A stretch of 31,849 nt of DNA. Source: Candidatus Eiseniibacteriota bacterium (GTDB taxonomy: Bacteria > Eisenbacteria > RBG-16-71-46). This document shows positions 7,632 through 31,403 of this stretch, in pieces (position 1 is the first letter of the stretch; each line of letters begins with the position of its first letter). The notes beneath the pieces are model-generated. The model was not told the DNA's origin. It saw only the letters and a program-made list of their open reading frames with translations, and did not search any database. Both the position numbers and the translations under genes were made by a program. The stretch spans positions 1 to 31,849 of the forward strand of contig JANMQY010000098.1 in assembly GCA_031370785.1 (NCBI GenBank). Reading direction: 5' to 3'.

Positions 7632-9194
7632 TCAGCGGCCGTGGGCCGTGACAGAGACCTTGGCGACCGCGCTCCTTCCTGATTGAAGCAGGCGTACGAA
7701 ATAAACGCCGGGCGAGCGGAATTCGTCTCTGCGGAACTGCGCAATGCGCCGGCCGGGGCCGGGAGCGCCCAAGTTCCGGCGCAGGACCCGGCGCCCCGCA
7801 GGGTCCAGCAGCTCGAGCGTGGCGGGCTCCCAGCCCTCCAGAGAATAGGACAGGGTCACCTCGCCGGTGGCCGGATTCGGTCCGACGCGATCGAAGCCGA
7901 ACGAGCTGGTCGCCGGACCAGGGACGGACAGCACGGCGGGATCGAAGACGGTAAATGTGTCGATGACGCTTCCCATCGTGCACGTGATGTCGTTCATGTT
8001 GCCCGGGACAAATCCCGCGGGGCCGCACAGGACCTGGCCCTCGATGGCGGTGGGCGTGAAGCGCAGCTTGACGGCGGCGTGGTGCAGGGCGCGATACGCC
8101 GACCAGGTCGGCGGCGGACAACCCCCCTTCCACAGACACGTGGTGTCTCCAGTGCTTTCCATATTGGCTCCACCGACACCGGCCGTGATGTGGGTCACGT
8201 GGGACTGTGGATACGACCGCTCGTAGTTGTGGCTGTGGCCGCAGAGGTCCAGCACGTACTTGCTGTGTGTCGCACCCAGGCCGTTGAGATACGCCCTCAG
8301 GGTCAGATCTCCGGATGAATAGTTGCCCGACGAGTAGGTCGGGCGATGGCCAAACGTCACGATGAACGTGATTGCCGTATCGCTCTGGGCCTGGTTCATG
8401 ATGAGACCGACCTTCGTATTCCAGTCGGCCCACGGCCCGCTGGGGCCGTAGGTATACGGCTCCGGGATGGCGATGAAACGCGTGTTGCCATAGTCGAGCC
8501 AGTACCAGTCCTCGCCGTAGGGCCTCGGGGTGCCTGCAGGGTCGGACGAGTCCGGCGCTGTCGGACTCGTCTGGGCGTGGGGAAGGTCGAAGCGACCCTT
8601 GTAATTTCTCAGATCGTCCGTGGTCTTATCCCACTCGTGGTTACCCCAGGCCGGCATGTATGCAGCGTCCTGCGACCAAACCATGACATCGTTGAAATGA
8701 TTGTCGACGTGGATCTGACCAAAACTGTTTGCATAGGTGATGTCCCCCACGACCAGCACGAACTGGGGTCTTCCGGCAGCGATCATGGATTGGACCACGG
8801 GCATCCGCGCGAAGAGCCCGCCGTCGCCGACGTCGCCTTCGACGTACACCGTGAAGCCCGACGTCCCCCGTGGCGGCGGGGTGTGGAAAGTGTGGTCGGG
8901 ACCGGCACCGATCGAATAGTGGTAAAGCGAGTTCTCCTGAAGCCCAGTGAGCCTCGCCTCCCAGAACGGGCCTGGCGATGAGAACGGAAGCGGGCCCGGG
9001 GTCACGGCGGTCGCGCTCTGCCCGTAACTCGCGGTGAGCCCGTAGGCGATCGTGCTTTCCGGGCCTCGCCAGTCGAACGTCACCGACGCCTGGCCGGTGA
9101 TCGTCCAATGAATTTCATCCGCTGGCAGAGCCTCGCGGGCCAGCCCCAGCGCGCAGAACACGAGCATCCACAAGACCTTGTTCGGTGCCATCAC
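7632..9194 (-). CDS. Secreted purple-acid-phosphatase-like metallophosphoesterase with T9SS-A/FlgD-like C-terminal domain
   Basis: Motifs GDVG, GDITY, GNHE, FGH, GHSHNYER; FN3-like N-domain; signal peptide; RBS AAGGAAGG. Start is GTG 9194 or ATG 9191. Confidence 0.9.
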   Translation of the reverse strand: MMAPNKVLWMLVFCALGLAREALPADEIHWTITGQASVTFDWRGPESTIAYGLTASYGQSATAVTPGPLPFSSPGPFWEARLTGLQENSLYHYSIGAGPDHTFHTPPPRGTSGFTVYVEGDVGDGGLFARMPVVQSMIAAGRPQFVLVVGDITYANSFGQIHVDNHFNDVMVWSQDAAYMPAWGNHEWDKTTDDLRNYKGRFDLPHAQTSPTAPDSSDPAGTPRPYGEDWYWLDYGNTRFIAIPEPYTYGPSGPWADWNTKVGLIMNQAQSDTAITFIVTFGHRPTYSSGNYSSGDLTLRAYLNGLGATHSKYVLDLCGHSHNYERSYPQSHVTHITAGVGGANMESTGDTTCLWKGGCPPPTWSAYRALHHAAVKLRFTPTAIEGQVLCGPAGFVPGNMNDITCTMGSVIDTFTVFDPAVLSVPGPATSSFGFDRVGPNPATGEVTLSYSLEGWEPATLELLDPAGRRVLRRNLGAPGPGRRIAQFRRDEFRSPGVYFVRLLQSGRSAVAKVSVTAHGR

Positions 9195-9571: not shown

Positions 9572-10636
9572 CTACTGCCGCACCCGTAGGTCACTCACCG
9601 GCGCTGGCGGAGTCGTGTCCGACACCGTGGATTGCCTGGCCTGAGCAGAGTTTGGATCGATCATCAGGGAGGATTCGTCCACGGCTTCGAACTGATTCGA
9701 AGGAACCGTAGAAAGCTCCCGAATCATATTCGTGTCCCAGCCCGGGTCGGCAGTCCCCACCAGTTCCCAGTCGAGGCCGACGTCCGCCAGGATCATCCCG
9801 TAGTGCTTGATCGCCAGGAGCACGACCTGCGTGTTCGGGCTGAATCCCGAGATGTCGTAGCTCGCCTTGAGCCGGAAGCGCGCACCCATCGGCGGCGCAT
9901 TGGGGTTGGGCGTTTGTGTGTCATGGCGCGCAGGCCATAGGTGCGCGCCGGTAGTCCCGTTGATGTGTGCCTCGGTCGCCTCGAACCGCAGAGCGTGCCG
10001 GATCGCGCCCGCTTGCACTTCGTCCCAACGCGCGAGCCCGCAGAACATTGCTAGCCCCGCTTCGTCAGCCGAAGAGCGGCCGTCTGCCCTGAGTGTGTTC
10101 GAGCGGAGGTTCCAGATCACCGCCGCGTGCGCCTGAGGAGTTCCGTTGTTCCAGTCGGCCAGATACATTTCGTAGAGCGTGCAGGTCATTGTGTCGATCA
10201 TGAACGCATGCTTGTCGGATGTGGCGATCTCGAGTGGCGTACCGGCGGTGAACGGATATGGGCCGGGCACGTCGCTATCCAACTGGCTCTGCCCGACGAT
10301 CGTGATGGGCACCTTGGGCGTCGAGGTGTCGGTCAACGCGTACTGCATCCCGAACGTATTGGGGTAGAAGCCGATCCACAAGTGGTTGGCGTTCGTCGGC
10401 GGCCCGCTGACCGTCGCCACCCACGTCGCGCTCATCGGGTGGACCGGCACATTTGAGATGTCCGTGTTCCAGATGTTGTCCGACGGAAAGATCGGACAGC
10501 GCGGCGGCGGCGCGGTCCAGTCGGCGGCTGCGGTGATGCTAGAGGCGATCGGCCTGGGATCGCCCGCTGCGAACGCAGGGCTGATCGGGCCCAACGCCAG
10601 AAGCATGACCAGGCTGCCGAATTTGCGCGGTGCCAT
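9572..10636 (-). CDS. Secreted hypothetical protein ending in an orphan FN3 A-strand-like motif
   Basis: ATG 10636 with GAGG RBS, signal peptide ending AFA-A, globular body (FPSDNIWNTDIS, SSADEAGL, IRHALRF, PPMGARFRL, KHYGMILAD), C-terminus DTTPPAPVSDLRVRQ. Confidence 0.85.
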   Translation of the reverse strand: MAPRKFGSLVMLLALGPISPAFAAGDPRPIASSITAAADWTAPPPRCPIFPSDNIWNTDISNVPVHPMSATWVATVSGPPTNANHLWIGFYPNTFGMQYALTDTSTPKVPITIVGQSQLDSDVPGPYPFTAGTPLEIATSDKHAFMIDTMTCTLYEMYLADWNNGTPQAHAAVIWNLRSNTLRADGRSSADEAGLAMFCGLARWDEVQAGAIRHALRFEATEAHINGTTGAHLWPARHDTQTPNPNAPPMGARFRLKASYDISGFSPNTQVVLLAIKHYGMILADVGLDWELVGTADPGWDTNMIRELSTVPSNQFEAVDESSLMIDPNSAQARQSTVSDTTPPAPVSDLRVRQ

Positions 10637-10980: not shown

Positions 10981-13900
10981 TCATCGAAGTACGACAAACC
11001 GCCCGGTCCTTACGCCCTCCAGCGCATCGATGCGGTAGAAGTAGATCCCCGGGCCCATCGACTCACCGCCGGCATTCGCGGTGATCGTCAGCTGGTGCAC
11101 GCCGGCCGGAGCATCCATCTCGTCTATTAACTGGCGAACGCGTCGCCCCGCCAGATCGACGACATCGACTCGCAGAACCCCTGGTCGCGAGGTTGCGAAG
11201 CGGAGCGTCGCTTCCGAGCGGAACGGGTTCTGAGAAATTCGAGGCTCGAGCGGCCGAAGGGCCAGGATCTCGCTACTCGCTGACGGTGCCGGACCGCTGA
11301 TCGCCGGTGCGGCCGCCCCGGTCACGTTGCGGATCGAGAGGTTGTCCGTGAGGAAGACCTCTCCAGCAATCACCGGGTAGTCCTTGACGTTGAAATCCAG
11401 CGTCGAGTTGGAGGCCAGGGTAACGTAGTCCACCGTGACCATCTGCCAGGTCGGCGACAGCCGCACACCGGTGGAGAGGACCGACCCCAGGAGCGCGCTG
11501 GTGGCGATCGAGTACTCCTTGACCGAAATCTTGGCCGTGCCGGTGCTGCTCGCGGACCTGATCCAAGCGGTGAAGCGGTATCGGGACCCCGCGGCAGGCG
11601 TGGGGCCGACCCAGTCGGAATGGTCGTTGATACCGAAGCTGGAGGTGCTGGTCCCGGTCGCGCTCATCTGCGCCGCGTAGGAGCCGTCGAACCCGCCCGG
11701 GACGCGCGCCAGTACGCACGAGGCAAAGGCGTTCCAGCGAACGAGGTCGGCCTCGAACGATGGATTGCCGACCAAGTTGGCCTGGAGCGGAACCGCGGCC
11801 ACGATGAGCGACACCGAGCTCGAACGCGTCCCGCCATCGTTGTCAGTCACGGTGACTGTCGCGGTCCAATTGCCCGCGGCGTAGGTGTGTGAGGCGGTCG
11901 GCAATGTTTGCGTATTTGGGAGTGTCCCGTCCCCAAAGTCGAACCGATAGGAGACAATGGTGCCGTCGGCATCGCTCGAAGCCGAGGCGTTCGCGGCGAC
12001 AGCGAGCGGCGCATTGCCGGTACTCGGCGTCATCACCAGCGAAGCCGTGGGAAGCTGATTGGAGGCTGTCACGGTGATCCCCGTGTTCGCCGATCCGGAG
12101 AGCGCGTTCGAGGCCGTGAACGTCGCGGTGTAGGAGCCCACCTGGTTGCTGGCAGGCGTCCAGTTCAGCGTCCCGCTGTTGTTCCCCGCGCCCGGAGTGA
12201 AGGTGGCGCCCGCCGGCAGCCCGGCGGCGGTGAGCGACGTGATCGCATTGGAGTCCGGGTCCGCGGCCGTCACGTTCACGACGATCGGGAGTCCCGCTTT
12301 ACCGGCCGCCGTGGCGGGGGCCGAAACAGCGGGCGCGCGGTCCACGTTGGTCACTGTGATCGCCGTCGTCGCCGTGCCCGAAATGACGTTCGAGGCCCTG
12401 AAGGTCACCGTGTAGTTGCCTGCCTGCGTGTAACCCGGCGTCCAGTTGAGCGTCCCGGTGGTGTCCCCCGGACCCGTCGAGAACGTCGCGCCGGGCGGCA
12501 GACCGCTGGCCGTCAGCGAGGTGATCGCATCCCCCTCCGGATCCGTGGCAGTCACGTTCACGGTGAGCGGGCTGTTCTCGGCCACCGTGGCCGTCGCCGG
12601 CGCCGTCACGATCGGCGCACCGTCCGGCTTGGTGACCGTAATCGTCGTGGTGGCGGACGTGCTAAGGGCGTTCGCGGCGGTGAAGGTCACCTGGTATGAG
12701 GAGTCGGCAGCGCTCGCGGCCGGGGTCCAGGTGAGCGTTCCGCTCCTATTGTCGGGGCTTGCCGTGAAGGTCGCTCCCGCCGGAAGCCCGGAGAGATCTG
12801 CCGTAAGGGATGCGATCGACTCTCCGTCCGGGTCGATAGCTGTCACGTTCACCGTCAGCGAGCTCAGGGCCCGCCCACTCACTGTGGGCGGCGCCGTGAC
12901 CACCGGCGGGTGCGGGGCGTCGAAGACTGAGATCACGGTCGGCGCGGAGCCAGAGAGCACATTCGCGGCCGTGAAGGTCACGCTATAAGAGCCCGCCTGG
13001 CCTTCCGCGGGGGCCCAGCTGAGCGTCCCGGTCGTATCCCCCGGATCCGCTGTGAAGGTGGCTCCAGCTGGGAGCACGGCGGCCGTGAACGAGGCGATCC
13101 CTTCCTGGTCCGGATCGGAAGCCTTGACGCTCACGGTCAGGATCTTTCCGATCACTATGCCGGCAGTCGCGGGCGCCGTCACGACGGGCGCGCGGTCCAC
13201 ATTAGTGATGGTGAAGGCGGTGGCCGCGGACGCCGACAGGGCATTCGAGGCCATGAAGGACACCGTGTACGAGCCCGCTTGGTCGTAGCCTGGCGTCCAT
13301 GCAAGCGTCCCGCTGCTGTTCCCCGGACCTGCGGAGAACGTGGCCCCCGACGGCAAACCAGAGGCCGTCAGCGATGTGATCGCTTCTCCGTCCGGATCGG
13401 AGGCCTGCACATTGACCGTCAGCGGGCTGTTCTCGGGCCCGGTGGCGGCCGGAGAGGCAGTGATCACTGGCGCGCGGTCCACGTTGGTCACCGTAATCGC
13501 CGTACTTGACGTGGCCGAGCGCGCGTTCGTGGCCCTGAACGTGACCGTGTACGGGCCGGCTTGGTCGAAACTCGGCGTCCAGCTCATCCGGCCCGTGGTG
13601 TTGCCGGAACCGGGCACGAAGGTCGCGCCCGCCGGTAGCCCCGAAACCGTAAGCGAGTCGATTGCGGGGCTGTCAGGGTCCGAGACCGTCACGTCCACGG
13701 TCAGCAGGTTGTTCTCAGCCACCGTGGCTGTCGCCGGCGCCGTCACGACGGGCGACTGATCGCCGATGATGAGCTGATCCATGACGCTACCCTGACTGCA
13801 GGTCACGTCATTGATGTTGGCCGTGCTGTCGCCCGGCGGCCCACAGAACGCCACGATCTCGATCGAGGAAGACGTGAAGTGTAGCTGGACCGCCACATGA

Positions 13901-16900
13901 TGCATGGCGCGGAACGCTGACCACGCGGGCGGCGGGCACCCCCCCGACCACAGGCAGGAACTACCCGTAGCCTCTTCCAAGTTCGCTCCGCCCGGCCCGA
14001 CCGTGACGTGAACCACGCCGTTCTGGGGATACGAGCGCTCATAGTTATGGCTGTGCCCGTTGAGGTTCAGCTTGTATTTGTCGTGGGTGGCGCCCAGGCT
14101 GTCCATATAGGCGCGCAATTCCGCATTGCCCGGGTGAAATCCGCTGGAGTAGGCCGGACGATGCCCGAAGGTGACGATGAACTTGATGGCCGGATCGAGT
14201 TGCGCCTGGTCCATCAGCACGGCCGCTCGGTCGCGCCAGTCGAGCCAGGCTCCCGTAGACTTCTCAGGGTAGGTGATGAATCTCACGTTGCCGTAGTCGA
14301 ACCAGTACCAGTCCTCGCCGACGGCGATGGGCGGCACCCCGGGTGAGGTCTGCGGATTGGGAAAGTCGAACCGACCCTTGTAGTTCCTGAGGTCATCTCC
14401 CGGGGACTCCCATTCGTGGTTGCCCCACACCGGCATATAGGCAGCGTCCTGCGACCAGGCCATCACGTCGTTGTAGTGCCGATCCACGGCGGTCTGATCC
14501 GAGGTGTTGGCGTAGGTCATGTCACCTGCGACCAGCGTGAATGCCGGCCTTCCCGCCGCGATCATGGACTGGATAGCCCCCATGCGGGGAGCCAGCGTCG
14601 CGTCGCTGACGTCGGCCTCGGTGAAGACGACGAAATCCGAGGATCCGCGTGTGGGCGGAGTGTGGAAGGTGTGGTCCGGCCCTCCGCCGATCGAGTAGTG
14701 GTAAGTCGTGTTCTCAAGCAGCCCGGTGAGCTTCGCCTCCCAGAACGGCCCCGGCGACGAATACGGAATCGGGCTCGGCGTGACTCCCGTTGCGCTCTGG
14801 CCATAGCTGCTGGTCAGACCGTAACGAATCGTGGCGTCGAAGCCGCGCCAATCGAAGGTCACCGAAGTCTGACCGGTGAGCGTCCAGTGGATCTCGTCCG
14901 GCAGCTGCCCGGTCGGGGCTGGCTGGACCGTGATGACCCGCGTGCCGGGCGTCGGGTCTGGCTTCCCAAAGCCATCCGTAACGGTCAGCGAAACGGTGTA
15001 GGTCCCGGGGGTGTTGAAGATCACCGGACCCGGGTCCTCTGCCGTCTGGTTCGCCGCTCCCCCGCCCAGGTTCCACAGGTAGGTAAGCGGACCGCTGGCG
15101 TCGGGATCGATTCCCGTGCCTTCGAAATTGACGGCCTGGCCCGCGGCGATCGTGGTGTTGGCGAGCGGCAGGTCGATCACGCCATTCGGCGCAATGTTGC
15201 CGCCGGACACCGTGATCGGGGCCGAGGCTGTCCCCGTCAGGCCGGTGTTGTCGGTGACGACCACGGTGGCGGTCCAGTTGCCCGAATCGTAGGTATGTGA
15301 GGCCGTCGGCTGCGACTGCGGGCCGACGACAGTCCCGTCACCGAAATCAAACCGGTACGAGGCGATCAGGCCTTCCAGATCGGATGAGCCCGACGCATCC
15401 GCAACTACGGGCAGGGGCGCCTGGCCGGTCGAGGGCGTCAGTGTCAGGACGGCCGTGGGAGGACGATTGTATGCGAATTCGAACGCGCCCAGGTCGGCGT
15501 ATGGCACGGGCCCCCGGCCGGTGTTGGGCGTGGCCGGATCGTCGCCTCGGGCGTGGCCTTCGGCATCGGTCGCCGGCCAGTTGGGCACACCCGAGTCGGC
15601 GGCGTCGATGGCCGGGGAGCCCGCCAGGAGATGGAAGTCCCCCGCCGCCGGGTTCCCGAATCGGGGGTCGGCCTGGATCGAGTTCACATCGTGCCCGGTC
15701 GCCGCGCTGAAGGCCGCGATCGTCGAATAGAGCGTGCTGATGAACTTGATGGGCTTTTGGGTTGTGGAGTTCCAGAAGATGTTGCGATCCGACACGAACC
15801 CCACCGAGGACGAATCGTTCACCCACAGGTTGACCTCGTTAGTCGTCAGCCCGTTGTCGATCGCGATGCAATCGAAGAGGGACCCGTTCGGGGCCTGACC
15901 TTCGATCGAGAACCCGTCCTTGAAGTTGTGGTAGGCGACGTCCCCGACATGCGAGACGCCGGCGGCGTACAGCTGGTCAAAGCCGTGATCACCGTTGTTC
16001 CAGCTCATGTTCTGGATCGAGACGCAGTTGTCCGATCCCTGTTCGATCTGGATCCCCGAGTCCTGGTTGTCGTGAATGCGGTTGCGCTGGATCAAGTTCC
16101 CCGGCGATCCGTAGACGCGAATCCCCACCGCCCTTCGCGAGGGCGGGTAGATGTTGCGCATGGACTCGTTGTCCTGGACCGTGCAGCCCGTCGAGCCGGT
16201 CGAGCTGCTCTTGGTGAGAAAGATGCCGTTGTCCGAGTTGTCGGACGCCACGTTCTTCTCGATCAGGACTCCGGTGCAGCCGGTCACATAAATTCCGTAC
16301 CTATAGTTCCAGGTGCAGGTGTTGTTTCGGATAATGTTGTAGTTACTCGCCGTGTTGAGGTAGATCGCGCGATCCTCGGCGCGCGTCACCGTGAACCCGT
16401 CGATCGTCACGTAGGAGCGTCCACCGAGGTAGATCCCGCGGGTCCGATGCCCCACCATGATCGTGCGCGTGCCGGGATTCGGGCCCCCGATGTTGACGTA
16501 CAGGCCCTGCCCGTTGACCCGGACGAAGGAGTTGACCGGGAGCGATCCCGGCGACGCGGTGGAGGACTTGAGCCGCACTCCATCCACGAACACTTGCATC
16601 GGGCCCCAGCTCACGCTCGAGGCCCGGTACACGTTTCCGGAATAGAGACTCCAGAGCGAGGTGGACGAGAAATCATCCGAGCCGTCTACGATCACCGACC
16701 CGCCCAGCGCCTTGATGGTGTAGGGATTTCCCGCCACACCCGAGGTCGCTACCGTGACCGACTCGCGATAGATGCCCGGCTTCACGTAGACGGTGACGCC
16801 GGGACCTTTGTTCGCGCCGACGGCCGCCGAGATGGTGCAGTAGGGCTGCGCCTCGGTTCCGGGGCCGACGTCAGAGCAGGCCGTGCTCGAGTTATCGACG

Positions 16901-17016
16901 TAGACGATCACCGCCGCGGCATACGCCGCGGGCGCCGCGAGGAGCGGGATGGCAACGGCGACGCCTGTGGACAGGGCCCTCCACAGCGAGCAGTGGAGCG
17001 CCATCATGCGTGACAT
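10981..17016 (-). CDS. Giant secreted multidomain protein: parallel beta-helix, two PKD, PAP-like metallophosphoesterase, six Ig/cadherin-like repeats, PKD, CBM4/9-like domain, T9SS-A/FlgD-like C-terminal domain
   Basis: Signal peptide ending AYA-A; Asn-ladder repeats and GDFHLLAGSPAIDA; PKD motifs YRFDFGDG; GDMTY, GNHE and GHSHNYER; six P.VTAP...DPD...LP.GATF...WTP repeats; NLVGNPSFE; DLAGRRVR...PGIYFYRI. Start uncertain between 17004 and 17061. Confidence 0.88.
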   Translation of the reverse strand: MSRMMALHCSLWRALSTGVAVAIPLLAAPAAYAAAVIVYVDNSSTACSDVGPGTEAQPYCTISAAVGANKGPGVTVYVKPGIYRESVTVATSGVAGNPYTIKALGGSVIVDGSDDFSSTSLWSLYSGNVYRASSVSWGPMQVFVDGVRLKSSTASPGSLPVNSFVRVNGQGLYVNIGGPNPGTRTIMVGHRTRGIYLGGRSYVTIDGFTVTRAEDRAIYLNTASNYNIIRNNTCTWNYRYGIYVTGCTGVLIEKNVASDNSDNGIFLTKSSSTGSTGCTVQDNESMRNIYPPSRRAVGIRVYGSPGNLIQRNRIHDNQDSGIQIEQGSDNCVSIQNMSWNNGDHGFDQLYAAGVSHVGDVAYHNFKDGFSIEGQAPNGSLFDCIAIDNGLTTNEVNLWVNDSSSVGFVSDRNIFWNSTTQKPIKFISTLYSTIAAFSAATGHDVNSIQADPRFGNPAAGDFHLLAGSPAIDAADSGVPNWPATDAEGHARGDDPATPNTGRGPVPYADLGAFEFAYNRPPTAVLTLTPSTGQAPLPVVADASGSSDLEGLIASYRFDFGDGTVVGPQSQPTASHTYDSGNWTATVVVTDNTGLTGTASAPITVSGGNIAPNGVIDLPLANTTIAAGQAVNFEGTGIDPDASGPLTYLWNLGGGAANQTAEDPGPVIFNTPGTYTVSLTVTDGFGKPDPTPGTRVITVQPAPTGQLPDEIHWTLTGQTSVTFDWRGFDATIRYGLTSSYGQSATGVTPSPIPYSSPGPFWEAKLTGLLENTTYHYSIGGGPDHTFHTPPTRGSSDFVVFTEADVSDATLAPRMGAIQSMIAAGRPAFTLVAGDMTYANTSDQTAVDRHYNDVMAWSQDAAYMPVWGNHEWESPGDDLRNYKGRFDFPNPQTSPGVPPIAVGEDWYWFDYGNVRFITYPEKSTGAWLDWRDRAAVLMDQAQLDPAIKFIVTFGHRPAYSSGFHPGNAELRAYMDSLGATHDKYKLNLNGHSHNYERSYPQNGVVHVTVGPGGANLEEATGSSCLWSGGCPPPAWSAFRAMHHVAVQLHFTSSSIEIVAFCGPPGDSTANINDVTCSQGSVMDQLIIGDQSPVVTAPATATVAENNLLTVDVTVSDPDSPAIDSLTVSGLPAGATFVPGSGNTTGRMSWTPSFDQAGPYTVTFRATNARSATSSTAITVTNVDRAPVITASPAATGPENSPLTVNVQASDPDGEAITSLTASGLPSGATFSAGPGNSSGTLAWTPGYDQAGSYTVSFMASNALSASAATAFTITNVDRAPVVTAPATAGIVIGKILTVSVKASDPDQEGIASFTAAVLPAGATFTADPGDTTGTLSWAPAEGQAGSYSVTFTAANVLSGSAPTVISVFDAPHPPVVTAPPTVSGRALSSLTVNVTAIDPDGESIASLTADLSGLPAGATFTASPDNRSGTLTWTPAASAADSSYQVTFTAANALSTSATTTITVTKPDGAPIVTAPATATVAENSPLTVNVTATDPEGDAITSLTASGLPPGATFSTGPGDTTGTLNWTPGYTQAGNYTVTFRASNVISGTATTAITVTNVDRAPAVSAPATAAGKAGLPIVVNVTAADPDSNAITSLTAAGLPAGATFTPGAGNNSGTLNWTPASNQVGSYTATFTASNALSGSANTGITVTASNQLPTASLVMTPSTGNAPLAVAANASASSDADGTIVSYRFDFGDGTLPNTQTLPTASHTYAAGNWTATVTVTDNDGGTRSSSVSLIVAAVPLQANLVGNPSFEADLVRWNAFASCVLARVPGGFDGSYAAQMSATGTSTSSFGINDHSDWVGPTPAAGSRYRFTAWIRSASSTGTAKISVKEYSIATSALLGSVLSTGVRLSPTWQMVTVDYVTLASNSTLDFNVKDYPVIAGEVFLTDNLSIRNVTGAAAPAISGPAPSASSEILALRPLEPRISQNPFRSEATLRFATSRPGVLRVDVVDLAGRRVRQLIDEMDAPAGVHQLTITANAGGESMGPGIYFYRIDALEGVRTGRFVVLR
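12062..13762 (-). repeat. Six tandem ~94 aa Ig/cadherin-like repeats
   Basis: Repeats begin DQSPVV, DRAPVI, DRAPVV, PHPPVV, DGAPIV and DRAPAV; boundaries approximate. Confidence 0.85.
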
Positions 17017-17221
17017 GCGACGAAGCCGACTCACCTTGGTCCTACGGATGTGCACGCACAATGCAGGCCGCGAGGCCTGTCCCTGTTGGCAACGGGTCGC
17101 CGGTTACGGGGTATCCTGGGCGCTGGCGTGAACGGCGATGCGAAGGGGGGTTGCGGCCCGATCAAGCAGATATATCAACTGCGCCTAGGTGCTACGTTCA
17201 TTTCAAACCAACTTCGTTACT

Positions 17222-17251
17222 ATCCTAAACCAATTCAACGCCGGATTTCAA
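17222..17251 (-). promoter_or_regulatory. Candidate sigma70-type promoter for the giant gene
   Basis: Minus strand TTGAAA-N18-TAGGAT in an AT-rich intergenic patch, overlapping the stop codon of the RtcB-like gene. Confidence 0.4.
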
Positions 17252-18654
17252 CCGTTTTTTAAGTTGCCTAGCGGCCGCAGCCTGATCACGGGTCGCATCA
17301 TGCTGTTCCTCATCAGGCATTGCATTACCCGATCGAGCCTTTCCGAGGACCGCAGTTCTATATCGTTACGCGACAATAACCTGGCACCGCGCCCCCGACT
17401 CATCCGGAAGCGTGTGACCTGGCCCTCCGCCCGTGCCAGATGTCCTCGCTTCCTGGAACTCTCGATCAGGTGCCCGGCCCCGTGGTCGTAGGAGCGTAAT
17501 CGGGCATCCACGCCGGGTTCACCGATGCCGAGATAGGATGGGACGTCATACATTCCCGCGACGATCGTGGGCTTGCCGGATTCGAGGCGACACGCATTAT
17601 GCCGGGCCACCCAGGAAGTGCCCGCAGGAGAAACACATTCCTCGATGCCGTTGTGGCTCACATCGCAGAACAGCTCCCATGCGAGGCTGGGAGAAACCGC
17701 GCCGTGCAGGCCATCCACGATCGCACGTACGGTTGCGAGTCGGTACGCATAGCCAAAGTTGATGGCCATCGCGAACGCCTGGCGAAGCAACCGACCCTCC
17801 TCCGACTCGGCGGGCACGGCCGTCCAGCCATTGCGGCGGAAGTGGAGCGCCCATTTCCTCGAGGCGGCGCCCTTTCCCATCCTCTGGAGATAGTGGAACA
17901 GGAGCTTGGATGCGAAGAACAGGGGAACTCGTGCGCGCTGGAGCTTGCTCCTGCGCGAGTAGTGGTTCAGCAGCGTCGCGCTGAAGGGCCCGGGGCCAAG
18001 GTGGTACATGATCACCACCTGCCCGCGCTCGAAACCCCAGTGCGCTGCCACCTCTCGGTCCACGAGCTCTTCGACGACCTGCACCTCGAGAAAATGGTTG
18101 CCGCCGAAGTTGAGTCCCATTTCCGACCGAGTAAACGTCGTGAGGAGCAACTGAAGCGGGACCACGTCCGTCAGGGGCGAGCTCTCGAGGCCGTTCGACG
18201 GCACACGTCCGCCATCCTCCATCCCCTGCAGCACCTTCTCGTCGAGCTCGTATCGCGAGAGCAGCGCCTGCGCTCCCTCGGAGAGAGTCCGCCGCAGCTC
18301 GCTGGCCGAAATGCTGTAACGGTTGGTATCGAAGTGGTTGGTCGCCGAGTTCGCATTGACGCTGGTGAAGAATGCGGCCAGCCGTTCGGGCGACATCTCG
18401 TCGGCCCGCAGGCCGGTCCTCACGATCCCCATGCCGTCGTTCACGTCCATCGAGGTGAACTCCGGAACGATCATGCCCCGGGTGGTGATGGCGATGCTCG
18501 ATGGCACCTCCATGTCCGCTTTCCAATGCACGTCGGGGAGCGCCAGGACGGACTCGACGTAGGGCAACCCCGCAAGTTGCTCCAACGTCCGACGGATCGG
18601 CGCCGGGAGTTCCTCACCGATGGAAAGCAACGTCAGTTTTTCCGAAGAATCCAT
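17248..18654 (-). CDS. Divergent RtcB-family (RNA ligase fold) protein
   Basis: RtcB motifs in canonical order: LPDVH, DVNDG (canonical DIxCG), GGNHFLEVQ, YHLGPG (canonical HSGSRG), DVSHN, HGAG, LRPLGNLK. RBS GGAAGGAG. Confidence 0.85.
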   Translation of the reverse strand: MDSSEKLTLLSIGEELPAPIRRTLEQLAGLPYVESVLALPDVHWKADMEVPSSIAITTRGMIVPEFTSMDVNDGMGIVRTGLRADEMSPERLAAFFTSVNANSATNHFDTNRYSISASELRRTLSEGAQALLSRYELDEKVLQGMEDGGRVPSNGLESSPLTDVVPLQLLLTTFTRSEMGLNFGGNHFLEVQVVEELVDREVAAHWGFERGQVVIMYHLGPGPFSATLLNHYSRRSKLQRARVPLFFASKLLFHYLQRMGKGAASRKWALHFRRNGWTAVPAESEEGRLLRQAFAMAINFGYAYRLATVRAIVDGLHGAVSPSLAWELFCDVSHNGIEECVSPAGTSWVARHNACRLESGKPTIVAGMYDVPSYLGIGEPGVDARLRSYDHGAGHLIESSRKRGHLARAEGQVTRFRMSRGRGARLLSRNDIELRSSERLDRVMQCLMRNSMMRPVIRLRPLGNLKNG

Positions 18655-21831: not shown

Positions 21832-23100
21832 TCAGCCGGTGCTCGCCGGACCCGGCAGAGGTACGGGAGGCCTCACGTCGCCGGCGACGGCAGGATGTGT
21901 ATAGGAGTAGAAATAGTGGAGCCTATCATCCGCGTGCTGGAAGTCGACCTGGTTCAGAACCGTGCCCAGCAGCTGAACGCCGCGGCTCTCGAGACGCTCC
22001 TTGGCGCGACGGATTACCTGAACATCGAACCCGCCGGCCTTGACGACCAAAAGCACGCCGTCGACCATCTGGGCGATCGCCTCCGCCGGGCTCGTGACCG
22101 CCACCGGGGGTGAGTCGACGATCACCACGTCGAACATCCGCGACAGGTTCTCAAGCAGGCGCTTCAGGGGTACCGAGCCCGAACCGGTCATCAAGTCGCT
22201 CTGGGCGACCCCACTGGTCAGGATCCTGAGGCTCCCGACCTCAGTTTCCTTCAGGTAGCTCTCGATCTGCCCGGTCAGGTACGGCCGCTTCGTGAAGTCC
22301 CTCAACTGCTGCCCGAGATGGGCGTCGATGCCCCAGGCATCCGGGTTCAGCCGCTGCCGCCGCATCGGGGCCGCGAGTTCGACCGCCCCCGTGTCAGAGA
22401 ACTCGCACCGGGGGCGACGCATCGCCAAAATACACTGCAATTGCTCGGCGATCTGAGCGCGCCGAACAGCCAGTAGCGCTTTGGGCTCGACGTAGCCCAG
22501 GCGCAGCACGATGTCGCCCAACGGCTCGCGGTTTTCGTCGCAGAGTCGCATGGCGCTGTCGCGCTGCGAAGCGGTGAGCAGGCCGCGACTCGCCAGGGCG
22601 TCCCCGAGCAGCCGGTTTTCCGAACCCTTCTGTTCGACGATGCTGACGATCGCGCCCTTCAGCAACGAGACGACGTAGGCCTGGTCGTTCTCGGCGACCG
22701 CCAGCCGGCCGCTCCGGCCCTGCACCTGGAGCAACTCGATCCAGTCGCCGAATTCGAGCTGGTTCGCATCCGCGCGATTGGGATCCGACTGATAGACGCC
22801 ATTCAGCAACTCGCCGAGTCCGGGCGCATTGTCGACGTTGAACAGACGATGTTGGCTGGGCCTGAACTGGTCGGTGTCCACCAGGACGACCTTGATCCCC
22901 CGGAGGCGTGCCATGACTCTGGAGAGCCCGGCCGCAATCGTGGACTTACCCTCACCAGGTCCGCTGCTCGTGATCAGCAGCGTGCGCTTCCCCTGGGCGA
23001 CGTGGCGCTCGACCTCCGCGCCGAGGGAGACGAAGCAGTCGGCTTCGAAGGCCCGGGTGACCTGAGGCGTATTCCTGCTCATGCGTGGGAATCGCTCCAT
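21832..23100 (-). CDS. CpsD/CapB-type tyrosine kinase (stand-alone Wzc kinase domain) with an internal DUF4388/MshEN-like insertion
   Basis: Walker A GPGEGKS, A' VLVDTD, Walker B VIVDSPP, GTVLNQ and C-terminal HYFYSY, with an extra segment of roughly 175 aa between A' and B. Confidence 0.85.
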   Translation of the reverse strand: MERFPRMSRNTPQVTRAFEADCFVSLGAEVERHVAQGKRTLLITSSGPGEGKSTIAAGLSRVMARLRGIKVVLVDTDQFRPSQHRLFNVDNAPGLGELLNGVYQSDPNRADANQLEFGDWIELLQVQGRSGRLAVAENDQAYVVSLLKGAIVSIVEQKGSENRLLGDALASRGLLTASQRDSAMRLCDENREPLGDIVLRLGYVEPKALLAVRRAQIAEQLQCILAMRRPRCEFSDTGAVELAAPMRRQRLNPDAWGIDAHLGQQLRDFTKRPYLTGQIESYLKETEVGSLRILTSGVAQSDLMTGSGSVPLKRLLENLSRMFDVVIVDSPPVAVTSPAEAIAQMVDGVLLVVKAGGFDVQVIRRAKERLESRGVQLLGTVLNQVDFQHADDRLHYFYSYTHPAVAGDVRPPVPLPGPASTG

Positions 23101-28023: not shown

Positions 28024-29163
28024 ATGAGGATCCTTCACGTGTCACGGTCAGCCGAGACGATTCGCGCGTTCCTGATCCCCACCATGAATGCTCAGAAACA
28101 GCTCGGCCACCAGGTATTCATCTGTGCGGCGGAGTCTCCACAGGCCGAGCAGCTTCGTAGCGCCGGCTTCGATGTGTTCACCCATCGCATGCCGCGCAGC
28201 CTGAACCCGTTGCGGGCGTTCCAGGCGATTTGGACCGTCCGGCGCGTGCTGGCCGATCAACGGATCGATGCCATCATTTGTCACACGTCGCTCGGTGCCG
28301 TCGTGGGAAGGCTCGCCGCCTGGATGGCACACACGCCGCGGGTCGTCTATTTCGTCCACGGACTGGCCTGCGGACCGGCGCAGGGATCGCTGTCGTGGCA
28401 GGTCCGTTACCAGGTTGAGAAGGCCCTGGGCTCTTTGACCGACGCAGTGGTCGTCATGAACGACTACGACGAGCGTCTCTCGAGGCGCGCTCCACTCGCC
28501 AAGAGCGCGGATGGCGTGTACCGGATCTCCAGCATGGGCGTCGACCTGCGCCGGTTCCCGACCGGTGGGTCCCGTCAGATCCGAGACCGAATCGGCCGCG
28601 AGCTGGGGATCGGGCAGAATCAGAAGCTCGTGCTGTGCACAGCCCGGCTCATTCCCGAGAAGGGCGTGGTCGAATTCATCGACGCCGCGAAACAGATCGC
28701 AAGTAGCCGGAGCGATGCCTTTTTCGCACTTGCCGGCACCGGTCCACTGTTCGAGAAGCTGAAACGCTCGGTGGAACGCGCCGGCATGGATGATCGTATC
28801 AAGGTGCTGGGATGGCGCAATGATGTGCCGGACCTGATGCAGTCGGCGGATATCTTCGTTCTGCCTTCCTACTTCATGGAGGGCCTGCCGGTGTCGATCA
28901 TCGAGGCCATGGCGTGTGGCAAGCCGGTGGTGAGCACGCACCACAAGGGCTGCGAGGACGCCGTCGTGGACCAGCAGACAGGCTTTCTCGTTCCCGTCAA
29001 GAACGTCCGGCCGCTCGTGGATCGGACCGTCCAGTTGCTCGACGATGAGACGCTGCGGGCGCAATTTGGGCAGGCCGGCCGGCGCAGAGCGGAGGAGCAC
29101 TTCGAGTTCGAGGCGTGCACGCGGCAGATCGTCGCGCTACTCGAAGAAACGATGCGCCGTTGA
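28024..29163 (+). CDS. Glycosyltransferase family 4
   Basis: MRILHV, ARLIPEKG, GWRNDVPDLMQSADIFVLPS, and EGLPVSIIEAMACG (E-x7-E). Confidence 0.93.
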   Translation: MRILHVSRSAETIRAFLIPTMNAQKQLGHQVFICAAESPQAEQLRSAGFDVFTHRMPRSLNPLRAFQAIWTVRRVLADQRIDAIICHTSLGAVVGRLAAWMAHTPRVVYFVHGLACGPAQGSLSWQVRYQVEKALGSLTDAVVVMNDYDERLSRRAPLAKSADGVYRISSMGVDLRRFPTGGSRQIRDRIGRELGIGQNQKLVLCTARLIPEKGVVEFIDAAKQIASSRSDAFFALAGTGPLFEKLKRSVERAGMDDRIKVLGWRNDVPDLMQSADIFVLPSYFMEGLPVSIIEAMACGKPVVSTHHKGCEDAVVDQQTGFLVPVKNVRPLVDRTVQLLDDETLRAQFGQAGRRRAEEHFEFEACTRQIVALLEETMRR

Positions 29164-29219
29164 CCGATGCAGGCCTGATCCCGCACGGGCCGGAAACCGA
29201 CACGTCGAAGGCCGCCTTG

Positions 29220-30047
29220 CTAGCGTCGCACTGTGAGATCCCGGATTGCCGCTGGCGGGATGACGTCGAGGGTCGGTGCGCTCACGACAATCGAGAGCAC
29301 CGAGACGTTGCCGGAGGCGTCGGTCGTCTTCATGGCGGCGTAGTAGGTCACGCTTCCCTGGAGGCCCGTGATCGTGAAAGTCTGGGTAGTTCCCGCGATC
29401 GCCGGCATGGGCTCGCCCGACACCGCCGTCGCCAGGGCCCAGTTCGCATCCGCGATCGGTATCGTCGAGTAGCGAATGTCGTAGCTCGCCGCGGTGCCGG
29501 TCGCGCCATCGTTGCCCGGCGCGGTCCAGCGCAGGGTGATGGACGTGCCGGTGGTCCCGGTGACGGCGAGGTCCGCGATTCTGCCCGGCGGCGCTGTGTC
29601 ACCGGACGTGGTCATGCTCCCGAAGTTGGAGTAGCCGGACCAGTTCGGCACTTCGTCGGCGATGCGCAGGATGAAGTAGTACGTCGTCAGGGGCGCGAGC
29701 CCGCGCACGCGAACCGAGTCCGTCGAGCCAACCGGCCGGGGCGCTGGAAGCCCGCTCACTCTGGTCGCGGCGTTCCACCAGGTGAGTGTGTCGGTTCCGA
29801 CGACGGACGTCGTCCGATACCGAAGATCGTACGTGCTCGCTGTGCCCATTGTACCGTCGTCACCAGAAGTGGTCCACGAGACCGTCAGGCTCGAGTCGGC
29901 AGCCGTCTGGGCGTCTGCACCGCGGGCCAGGAACAGCCCGATCACAACCGCGCCGAAGACGGCTCGGCTCAGGCCCGTTGGAACGAGGCGCTCGAAAGCG
30001 CGGGATCGGATGCGGAGCGTGCGCATGATGCAGTTCGTTGGAGTCAT
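29220..30047 (-). CDS. Secreted two-FN3-domain protein with permuted A strand
   Basis: ATG 30047 with AGGGGA RBS, signal peptide ending ADA-Q, two W.x.xG.DG..GTA..YD.RY...GL....TYY repeats, C-terminus DVIPPAAIRDLTVRR. Confidence 0.87.
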   Translation of the reverse strand: MTPTNCIMRTLRIRSRAFERLVPTGLSRAVFGAVVIGLFLARGADAQTAADSSLTVSWTTSGDDGTMGTASTYDLRYRTTSVVGTDTLTWWNAATRVSGLPAPRPVGSTDSVRVRGLAPLTTYYFILRIADEVPNWSGYSNFGSMTTSGDTAPPGRIADLAVTGTTGTSITLRWTAPGNDGATGTAASYDIRYSTIPIADANWALATAVSGEPMPAIAGTTQTFTITGLQGSVTYYAAMKTTDASGNVSVLSIVVSAPTLDVIPPAAIRDLTVRR

Positions 30048-30105
30048 ATTCGATCCCCTGTGAGATGAGACGCGAGGTGTGGTGGGCAAAGACCGCGAGC
30101 GCAAG

Positions 30106-30121
30106 GGCAGCTTCGGTGCCA
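30106..30121 (-). promoter_or_regulatory. Candidate sigma54 -24/-12 promoter
   Basis: Minus strand TGGCACCGAAGCTGCC has GG-N10-GC spacing, about 60 bp upstream of ATG 30047. Confidence 0.5.
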
Positions 30122-30494
30122 TATACGCCTTGCAGAATGCGGCGACATCTCGCGATGGGCGCCAACAAGCTGGCTGGCGCGAGATGCAGGCTGGGTCGCG
30201 CCGTGCGCATCGCACGGCCCGAAATGCACGGCCCCGAGGCTCAAGATGCACGGCGCTTGGAGGGTCCCAGCGGTACCGGAGCCCAAGTGTGGCTCGTACG
30301 CGACCGTAACGCATGACTCGGAGGTCGGAAGAAGTGGCGCGGGGCACGGTGAGTGTCCTCAGGCCGGACGCCCCGTGTCGCAACATTCGTGCCGGGGCAG
30401 GAGATTGCAGCTTATGCCGCTGGTTGGACTATGCTTGCACGACTTGTGACGCGTGGTTCGACGCGTTCGTGATGCCGGCCACTCGGAGGTCCCC

Positions 30495-31403
30495 ATGTCC
30501 GTTGGTGTTGAAGACCTCTCCTCCGCCCGGGCCGCACGACCCCCCGGAGAGCCCGCCCTGGCCATGAGCGTGGACGTGGAGGAATACTTCCAGGTGCAGG
30601 CCTTCGCAGGGCGCGTTTCCAGAGCGGACTGGGACCGCTGGCCAAGCCGTGTCGAAGCGAACACGGAGCGCTTGCTCGACCTGCTGGACGTGGCTGGTGC
30701 GCGGGGGACCTTCTTCGTGCTGGGCTGCGTGGCGGAAAAACACCCCGGCATCGTGCGCCGGATCGCCGCCGCCGGGCACGAGATTGGGTCTCACGGGATG
30801 TCCCACAGGATGCTTACCGAACTCTCACCGGACGAGATGAGGGAAGAAGCACGTGATTCGCGCCGGCTGCTCGAGGACCTCTCAGGGAGCCGAGTCGAAG
30901 GCTACCGGGCTCCCAGTTACACGATCAGCCCTCACACGCGCTGGGCCCTGGACATCCTGGTCGAGACCGGCTACACGTATGATTCCAGCATTTTCCCCAT
31001 CCGCGGGCGACGCTACGGCTATCCGAACGGCCCGACCCGGCCCAGCCGTCTCCCGACGGCCGCGTCAGCGATCGCAGAGTTTCCGATGACCACCATTGGA
31101 GCAGGCCCAGTTCGGATCCCCCTTCTGGCGGGATCGTATCTGCGCCTCCTTCCCTCCTGGGTATCTGAGGCCGCAGTGCGCTATCAGGTCCTCCGGAATG
31201 TTCCGCTGGTCGTGAACGTCCACACTTGGGAGATCGACCCCGGCCAGCCGACGATAGGGCCTTCGCGGGGCCGCGCCTGGACGCATTATGCGCGGCTCGG
31301 CGCCACCGCCGGCATTTTGATGCGGGTGCTGGGTCTGGGGCGCTTCGCGAGCATCGGCGACCGGCTCAGGGAGTTGGGCCTGCTGGGGTCGACTCCCCCT
31401 TAG
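30495..31403 (+). CDS. Polysaccharide deacetylase (CE4, PEP-CTERM/XrtA-locus subfamily, DUF3473-like C-terminus)
   Basis: SVDVEEYFQV, TFFVLG, GHEIGSHGMSH, GYRAPSY, YDSSIFP and HTWEIDP. ATG 30495 follows GGAGGT. Confidence 0.9.
   Translation: MSVGVEDLSSARAARPPGEPALAMSVDVEEYFQVQAFAGRVSRADWDRWPSRVEANTERLLDLLDVAGARGTFFVLGCVAEKHPGIVRRIAAAGHEIGSHGMSHRMLTELSPDEMREEARDSRRLLEDLSGSRVEGYRAPSYTISPHTRWALDILVETGYTYDSSIFPIRGRRYGYPNGPTRPSRLPTAASAIAEFPMTTIGAGPVRIPLLAGSYLRLLPSWVSEAAVRYQVLRNVPLVVNVHTWEIDPGQPTIGPSRGRAWTHYARLGATAGILMRVLGLGRFASIGDRLRELGLLGSTPP

Follow-up and report, generated by a model that had tools for sequence, protein, structure and literature searches.

A candidate split fibronectin type III strand-complementation system at an exopolysaccharide locus of Candidatus Eiseniibacteriota

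In chaperone-usher pili (Pap/Fim, Caf1), TasA, archaeal threads, bundling pili and cannulae, the terminal strand of a neighbouring subunit supplies in trans what an incomplete beta-sandwich lacks. The type V pili of Bacteroidota, with FimA/Mfa1 shafts and FimB/Mfa2 anchors, are set out in the available portion of PMC8512630: one subunit lacks an N-terminal strand, and the resulting groove is occupied by the C-terminal strand that another subunit donates; the anchor gene follows the shaft gene, and accessory proteins are found at the tip. RbmA of Vibrio cholerae is a secreted protein of two fibronectin type III (FnIII, below FN3) domains in tandem that is encoded with exopolysaccharide (EPS) genes, binds Vibrio polysaccharide (VPS) and forms higher-order matrix structures; it dimerises via its domain faces with a loop switch, and the excerpt of the source at hand describes neither a missing nor a spare strand (PMC5605196). 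The accessible text of a preprint on the Pam pili of candidate phyla radiation (CPR) bacteria describes a donor-strand pilus with an RbmA-like two-FnIII protein, PamR, whose extra N-terminal strand is predicted to enter the pilin (PMC13278184). Here we analyze a 31,849-nucleotide contig of an uncultured sediment bacterium, Candidatus Eiseniibacteriota (JANMQY010000098.1, assembly GCA_031370785.1; 'the window' below denotes this whole stretch), in which a gene at 29220..30047 encodes a predicted secreted protein with two FN3 domains, the first lacking its strand A and the second followed by a spare one. The phylum, Candidatus Eisenbacteria, belongs to the FCB (Fibrobacterota, Chlorobiota and Bacteroidota) group. 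We consider it somewhat more probable than the contrary that this protein is a bivalent extender of a split-FN3 strand-complementation system. The entire case for this system is computational.

The two-FN3 protein and its end strands

The gene and the parts of its product are as follows.

29220..30047, minus strand: two-FN3 protein gene (P0001), 275 aa, stop codon included; recognized from its open reading frame (ORF), translation and two Pfam fn3 stretches
29910..30047, minus strand: predicted signal peptide, residues 1-46, with a long Arg-rich n-region, the h-region AVFGAVVIGLFLA and A-D-A followed by Gln
29601..29909, minus strand: FN3 domain 1, the 'socket', mature residues 1-103, beginning at strand B without a strand A
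29268..29600, minus strand: complete FN3 domain 2 (mature residues 104-214), which has a strand A of its own, DTAPPGRIADLAV
29223..29267, minus strand: the 'tag' DVIPPAAIRDLTVRR, a spare strand A made up of mature residues 215-229, with the stop codon directly after it

The translation starts MTPTNC...GLFLARGADA, continues with QTAADSSLTVSW, contains DTAPPGRIADLAVTGTTGTSITLRW internally and ends in TLDVIPPAAIRDLTVRR before the stop codon. Pfam assigns fn3 (PF00041; 50.2 bits, cut-off 25) in two stretches, as well as Pur_ac_phosph_N (39.8 bits, cut-off 30). As judged from the sequence, a Sec signal peptide is probably cut after ADA (ADA/Q), and the Gln that follows the AxA site is invariant in 86/86 aligned sequences. 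The gene and its stop are identical (0 differences) in contigs assembled from a second sample (X2), so the stop is not an assembly artefact. In an alignment of 86 sequences (A1), the tail (mature 215-229) lines up with positions 104-118 of domain 2 (DTAPPGRIADLAVTG), while the mature N-terminus lines up with domain-2 position 117; at its two ends the chain thus presents a single A-B strand pair in almost exactly circularly permuted form. A first-pass annotation had described domain 1 as lacking strand A, domain 2 as opening with strand A and then strand B, and the protein as ending in a spare strand A with no domain after it. The strings are exact and agree with the structure model below, and the spare strand, which together with the stop codon spans 29220-29267, is correct in coordinates and peptide and is also conserved.

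A homologue search restricted to proteins of 151-482 aa returned 957 matches, and the counts that follow cover 119 homologues among the matches listed, the window's own entry excluded. No strand-A motif precedes the first B strand in 116/119, a spare strand-A motif follows the last domain in 114/119, and both features are combined in 113/119, including 28 proteins with three domains. Exceptions comprise fragments, a probable gene-call fusion, a lipoprotein form with strand A and a three-FN3 protein with a type IX secretion system (T9SS) tail. Since the three-domain homologues display the same shift, simple truncation as the origin of the missing and spare strands is ruled out. Within the 86-sequence alignment the tail (D215 1.00, P219 1.00, A220 0.99, V222 0.93, D224 0.91, L225 0.98) is as conserved as the internal strand A (D104, P108 and L114, each 1.00); the core-facing Leu of the tail is L225, and conservation stops two residues beyond it. 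The first-pass annotation had proposed that homologues be examined for both the missing N-terminal strand and a stop right after the motif. The former is nearly universal, but the spare strand ends within 6 residues of the stop in only 23 of the 86 two-domain homologues, the window's protein included. Where further residues follow the tag (homologues P0027-P0121; loci L031-L049) they come in two styles: an acidic one (...EVEIAYAR, ...AERHDS) in exosortase loci, and an aromatic one (...SFVWFGWH...) in PorV loci that resembles a second, B-like strand.

The mature N-terminus, Q-T-x-A-D-S (mature 1-6, window 29892-29909), is invariant or nearly so across the 86 sequences, with Q1, D5 and S6 invariant. 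AlphaFold2 (AF2) assigns mature residues 1-4 a predicted local distance difference test score (pLDDT) below 50. This segment may close over an incoming strand, or may be needed for cleavage. The FN3 subtype itself is common in giant tandem proteins; the best 150 of 12,149 representative matches are 506-6,858 aa long, with 4-35 matched stretches each.

For the mature chain, AF2 returned a model with pLDDT 91.3 and a predicted template modelling score (pTM) of 0.66. Domain 1 contains six strands (including mature 6-13, 26-32, 63-71, 76-84 and 97-100), the first of which, 6-13, is strand B and begins 5 residues past the predicted cleavage site. Domain 2 contains seven, including an extra strand (115-119) ahead of its B strand, and no strand was assigned to the tail of the monomer model. 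The protein matches the fn3 profile, and the seven-strand A-G sandwich of that family is found in domain 2 but not in domain 1. VIA-align placed domain 2 (model 105-216) on single FN3 domains (e.g. 2xyc, Z 12.5, root-mean-square deviation [rmsd] 2.0, 96 residues aligned), and both domains together on the extended FN3 tandems 7zcb_B (Z 11.5, rmsd 5.2 A, 180 aligned) and 5i99 (Z 11.6, rmsd 5.4 A, 169 aligned). Foldseek against the PDB gave generic tandem FN3 matches only. The end-to-end alignment puts the tail far from domain 1, and the modelled tandem is consistent with the earlier description of a two-domain rod whose C-terminal strand is remote from domain 1.

We modelled a three-copy complex using ESMFold2 with a custom alignment. 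The interface scores (ipSAE) were 0.50, 0.50 and 0.49, compared with 0.00 for the best of 3 controls; runs shared at least 95% of contacts, and the partner pLDDT was at least 82. In calibration, 20 of 30 proteins solved as same-chain pairs reached the ipSAE mark, as did 1 of 23 whose solved form is a single chain, counts that hold only roughly for this protein because of the custom alignment and the three copies. The confident interface joins residues 214-229 of copy 2 to residues 8-20, 24, 77, 79-87, 89-99 and 101-102 of copy 3, all within domain 1. Pairs between the tail and strand B (229-8, 227-10, 225-12 and 224-13) are antiparallel, corresponding to canonical A-B pairing in trans. The tail of copy 3 makes no confident contact, indicating that the model is an open chain and not a ring. 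As regards the earlier proposal that the C-terminal strand completes domain 1 of the next subunit, the predicted complex supports the docking step, in that the tail lies in trans on strand B.

Tags, sockets and anchors in other proteins

A scan of all stop-to-stop frames of at least 100 aa from the same genome gave 29 matches to the strand-A motif in 16,657 frames (27 in 16,372 when only closed frames are counted). In 5 ORFs the motif lay 1-4 aa from the stop, whereas 30 shuffles averaged 0.23 such ORFs and never exceeded 2; the N-termini of all five tag-ending proteins are signal-peptide-like. These proteins are listed below, with C numbers giving their locations outside the window.

C43: beta-helix protein, ending DVIPPAAIIDLR
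C37: beta-helix plus FN3 protein
C11: CBM_4_9 protein
Window 9575..10636, minus strand: second tag-bearing gene of the window, encoding an unknown-fold protein with a signal peptide, a domain of ~300 aa and the C-terminal tag DTTPPAPVSDLRVRQ (9575-9619)
Window 29220..30047, minus strand: the two-FN3 protein

A sixth tag, followed by a 22-residue tail, is present in gene 1 of C84. Six more tag-only ORFs with the motif three residues from the stop were found in three related loci: three Kelch proteins, a beta-helix, a PcRGLX-like protein and one of unknown fold.

The product of 9575-10636 (~330 aa) matched no Pfam family, and belongs to a very large family of its own (5,558 matches at E<=0.001, including Actinomycetota and Acidobacteriota records). 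Among 120 listed homologues, 19 carry the tag past the same domain end (12 identified by pattern and 7 by eye, the latter with Arg-Pro replacing Pro-Pro), while the untagged ones end at the domain or continue differently. Presence and absence of the tag past a common domain end show that it is modular. The gene sits just downstream of one encoding a 2,026-aa beta-helix/PKD protein with a C-terminal sorting domain (CTD). These sequence comparisons identify the spare strand as a portable C-terminal tag, a finding that goes beyond the first-pass reading of it as part of one fibre subunit.

For the sockets the pattern is the opposite one. In the same genome, strand A is missing from 5/5 FN3 domains of the tag subtype located immediately after a signal peptide (those of the two-FN3 protein, genes 1 and 2 of C84, and two proteins on C124), whereas internal domains of the subtype have it in 3/3 (C37, C142 and C147). 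Three of the five are socket-only proteins with T9SS-type sorting ends (FlgD_ig or Por_Secre_tail). Of these, C84 gene 2 scored 36.1 bits for FlgD_ig (cut-off 27), L018:2444-3541 scored 29 bits for TIGR04183 (cut-off 23), and the third fell just under the cut-off for Por_Secre_tail. A PorV/PorQ-family gene (108.4 bits, cut-off 90) follows the C84 pair. The C84 set (L013, G000:C84, 4603-8392) is operon-like: a two-FN3 extender gene, whose product ends in the tag plus tail DLAVSFIWFGWH, is followed by an overlapping gene for an anchor composed of an A-less FN3, a further FN3 and FlgD_ig, and then by the PorV/PorQ-family gene, which is fused to a LysM-like end. This trio recurs in 10/20 related loci.

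The two-FN3 family is present in 100/201 sampled genomes of the phylum and in 41/82 genera (E<=1e-40), the relatives' records being named Candidatus Eisenbacteria. For synteny we compared 20 loci from 19 genomes with 8 kb on each side, a non-random set that favoured long contigs and varied genera.

18/20 loci: A-less-FN3 plus CTD anchor gene directly after or overlapping the two-FN3 gene
18/20 loci: PorV-like gene within 8 kb
8/20 loci: XrtA-type deacetylase gene within 8 kb
6/20 loci: exosortase-EpsI gene within 8 kb

Both anchor-less loci (L030 and L035) carry the same short-tag subtype as the window's gene.

Proposed assembly and competing explanations

With a modest leaning, we hold trans strand complementation to be the function of the two-FN3 protein. 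The protein would be exported via Sec and its signal peptide removed, exposing domain 1 as an FN3 sandwich with a vacant strand-A position, the socket, and leaving its last 15 residues as a free strand A, the tag. In the modelled complex the tag runs antiparallel to strand B in the domain 1 of a second molecule, completing the fold; because the domains lie end to end, it could not reach its own socket. The acceptor could be another copy, yielding head-to-tail chains, or the N-terminal A-less FN3 of a protein with a T9SS-type CTD, through which the chain would be attached to the cell surface by what we infer to be a T9SS-like route. The free distal socket would be filled by secreted proteins that have the tag only (beta-helix, Kelch, CBM-containing and unknown folds). 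The resulting scheme, in its putative chain form, is anchor(CTD)-socket <- tag-(D2-D1)n <- tag-enzyme. Every part of this scheme points the same way, as a working system requires, and such a common polarity is not predicted by the rival readings. Based on gene context, the assembly probably organizes or remodels the slime layer or exopolysaccharide: the genes lie in or beside exosortase/XrtA-type EPS loci, and it is this neighborhood that links the protein to EPS.

The first-pass annotation had proposed a polymerizing fibre subunit. A true homopolymeric fibre is a possibility that falls short of probable in our estimation. The tag on unrelated secreted enzymes and the A-less FN3 on T9SS-tailed anchors indicate that the protein may link anchors with enzymes as an adaptor or extender, instead of or besides being a fibre subunit, and we keep both long homopolymers and a one-step adaptor as readings. 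More tentative still is a tag-and-catcher scaffold in which T9SS-anchored proteins present open sockets, two- and three-FN3 extenders polymerize on them, and polysaccharide-active enzymes bearing nothing but the tag, of 12-15 residues, cap the distal end; such a scaffold would be cellulosome-like and adjustable in length, and would be held together by donor strands only. Tag-bearing proteins without a sorting domain could ride to the surface docked on a CTD-bearing carrier.

Several observations weigh against strand complementation in trans. We recognized no outer-membrane-crossing signal in the extenders or tag-only proteins. Intact FN3 domains are abundant in solved structures, meaning that the three-copy model may complete the fold by drawing on them; what it demonstrates is complementarity and not binding. 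AF2 folded domain 1 confidently without strand A (pLDDT 83-94), and the domain may be stable alone. In 63 of the 86 two-domain homologues, 20-30 extra residues follow the tag. No anchor gene adjoins the short-tag subtype, whose tag lies 4 aa from the stop, in the window, L030 or L035. Finally, the two-FN3 gene is absent from the corresponding site in the contig of a close relative, an indel polymorphism, and the same-genus genome G087 has no family match at E<=1e-40; together these indicate that the gene is dispensable for the EPS locus and represents an accessory insertion. A further point against it, the behavior of the tail in truncated models, bears directly on one of three competing explanations.

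According to that explanation, the missing strand of domain 1 is supplied by the tail inside a closed unit, formed when the chain folds back on itself or when two chains pair reciprocally in an RbmA-like antiparallel dimer; the product would be a compact EPS-binding matrix protein and no polymer. The tail has a pLDDT of ~91 in the full chain and 73-80 when modelled with domain 2 alone, with no strand in either model, a drop upon removal of domain 1 that could hint at a contact in cis. Moreover, the antiparallel dimer of the two-FnIII, Vibrio polysaccharide-binding matrix protein RbmA, as reported in the part of the source available, offers a precedent (PMC5605196). Yet the monomer model has no tail strand and was aligned on end-to-end tandems, the three-copy model chose an open chain in trans, and tag-only and socket-only proteins cannot close on themselves, leading us to regard a closed unit as decidedly improbable. 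Somewhat less so, though still unlikely, is that the C-terminal motif serves as a sorting or processing signal read by a PorV-like/T9SS-like module or by an exosortase, with the A-less first domains being stable six-strand variants. Such a role would fit the constant position of the motif, which ends 1-4 residues short of the stop and is often accompanied by a basic residue, its proximity to PorV-like genes in 18/20 loci and to exosortase genes in 6/20, and the absence of any other outer-membrane-crossing signal from tag-only proteins. However, tandem FN3 domains of these very proteins have an internal strand A with the same sequence as the motif, and a sorting signal leaves unexplained why the FN3 after the signal peptide is A-less both in this genome and in nearly all of the family. 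In addition, known exosortase signals contain a transmembrane helix, which these tails lack.

The shift could alternatively be an evolutionary relic, in which an out-of-phase two-repeat piece of a giant tandem-FN3 protein gained a signal peptide and the spare strand either caps domain 2 or is inert. The abundance of this FN3 subtype in giant tandem-repeat proteins and the indel status of the gene among close relatives are as such an origin would have it. We nevertheless consider it the least probable of the three, and very improbable in itself, given that positions beyond any capping role (V222, D224 and L225) are conserved, that the same strand occurs at the extreme C-terminus of unrelated folds, and that five terminal motifs were observed where 0.23 were expected.

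Should strand complementation by the split-FN3 set prove correct, it would be the first FN3-based donor-strand assembly; our literature search found no other. A donor strand in the form of a short portable tag, found alike on fibre subunits and on unrelated enzymes and matched by sockets on T9SS-anchored proteins, would likewise be a first. Exosortase/EPS loci, T9SS-type anchoring and donor-strand polymerization, which are usually studied apart, would be linked, and a gene set found in half of the sampled genomes (100/201) of an uncultured phylum would be accounted for. For protein display, the tag and socket would furthermore offer a natural pair that is genetically encodable and holds without a covalent bond.

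The exopolysaccharide locus and relation to known systems

The window constitutes an XrtA-type EPS locus, with genes for the deacetylase, GT4, Wzz, tyrosine kinase, Wzy, Wzx, Poly_export and Bac_transf; the exosortase gene of this genome is on another contig. The two-FN3 gene is flanked by the following features.

28024..29163, plus strand: GT4 glycosyltransferase gene (Glycos_transf_1, 141.6 bits), convergent with the two-FN3 gene
30048..30452, no strand: divergent intergenic region of 405 nt between the two-FN3 and deacetylase genes
30453..31403, plus strand: XrtA-system polysaccharide deacetylase gene (TIGR03006, 278.4 bits, cut-off 276.2), divergent from the two-FN3 gene

A GT4 gene likewise adjoins the short-tag orthologue in L035. 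Rfam gave 0 matches in the window at the gathering threshold and 0 in 29900-30600 at E<=1, and hence no match to a c-di-GMP riboswitch upstream of the two-FN3 gene. A promoter and terminator scan found one promoter-like site, inside a coding region, no terminator, and no sigma-70-like site in 30048-30452. In the 20,598-nt contig of the close relative (~93-95% alike; runs X10/X11), the gap between the GT4 and deacetylase genes measures ~366 nt, compared with 1,172 nt here (29164-30335), and a 78-nt piece (30180-30257) is inverted. RNA-library contigs (X10, X11 and X14) cover the GT4 and deacetylase genes and not the two-FN3 gene, although contigs of this kind cannot show absence of expression.

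Other genes of the window also merit description. The tyrosine autokinase (21832-23100, minus strand) contains an inserted DUF4388 (35 bits, cut-off 25) and a sub-threshold MshE-like motif for binding cyclic di-GMP (c-di-GMP; 27.6, cut-off 38), a combination that hints at protein-level regulation of the EPS machinery by c-di-GMP. Large secreted proteins with T9SS-type sorting tails are encoded at 10981-17061 (beta-helix/Metallophos/He_PIG/PKD/CBM), 7632-9194 (Metallophos) and 5695-7452 (unknown type), all on the minus strand, so that cargo genes of T9SS type flank the EPS locus. Between the surface-protein genes and the Wzx flippase gene lies an RtcB RNA ligase gene (17248-18654, minus strand; 154.9 bits).

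With respect to the export and sorting systems that neighbor it, the two-FN3 protein has no PF07589 match and ends ...IRDLTVRR without the hydrophobic helix of PEP-CTERM proteins, a true example of which in L002 scored 24.0 bits (cut-off 20.7). Pfam and NCBIfam likewise revealed no T9SS C-terminal sorting domain (Por_Secre_tail/FlgD_ig-like) in it.

Among described assemblies, chaperone-usher pili differ in that the subunit lacks its C-terminal G strand, the donor is N-terminal, and a PapD-type chaperone and an usher take part, whereas the two-FN3 protein lacks the N-terminal strand A and carries a C-terminal donor; the folds differ as well, and Pfam scans of 20 window ORFs matched no chaperone or usher family. 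RbmA is closest in architecture and context, sharing two FnIII domains, secretion and EPS genes, although the likeness is one of analogy only; its absence from the listed Foldseek and VIA rows does not exclude a resemblance. Pam pili, according to the accessible text, have Ig-like shaft pilins assembled with chaperone assistance, and their FnIII protein, which has a transmembrane helix and an N-terminal donor, acts as terminator (PMC13278184).

Functional analogies to the FN3 tag and socket are offered by two further systems, one natural and one engineered, and we treat them as analogies. In the cohesin-dockerin pairs of cellulosomes, a short portable C-terminal module docks diverse enzymes on a cell-anchored, repeat-built scaffold; the dockerin is a folded calcium-binding domain, unlike the FN3 tag, which is a strand. 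SpyTag/SpyCatcher uses a strand split off an Ig-like domain, but is man-made and sealed by an isopeptide bond.

Type V pili remain the closest in mechanism: there a C-terminal donor serves an N-terminal groove, and the anchor gene lies downstream. For the two-FN3 protein, the insertion of a C-terminal strand into the groove of the next subunit is predicted by the three-copy model only (ipSAE 0.50 versus 0.00 for the control). Type V pilins are lipoprotein precursors of a non-FN3 fold whose groove is opened by gingipain, whereas the socket of the two-FN3 protein would be open straight after signal-peptide removal. There is no lipobox Cys at or near its cleavage region (ARGADA/QTAAD), and searches of Pfam and NCBIfam matched no FimA/Mfa-type pilin family, giving FN3-type families only. 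Type V anchors keep their N-terminus and donate their C-terminus; the anchors of the FN3 set are socket-only with a T9SS-type tail, and because they are sockets and not donors, polarity is reversed relative to type V pili. The tag is moreover shared with enzymes, a further difference. The split-FN3 set, as modelled, would represent a new form of donor-strand complementation.

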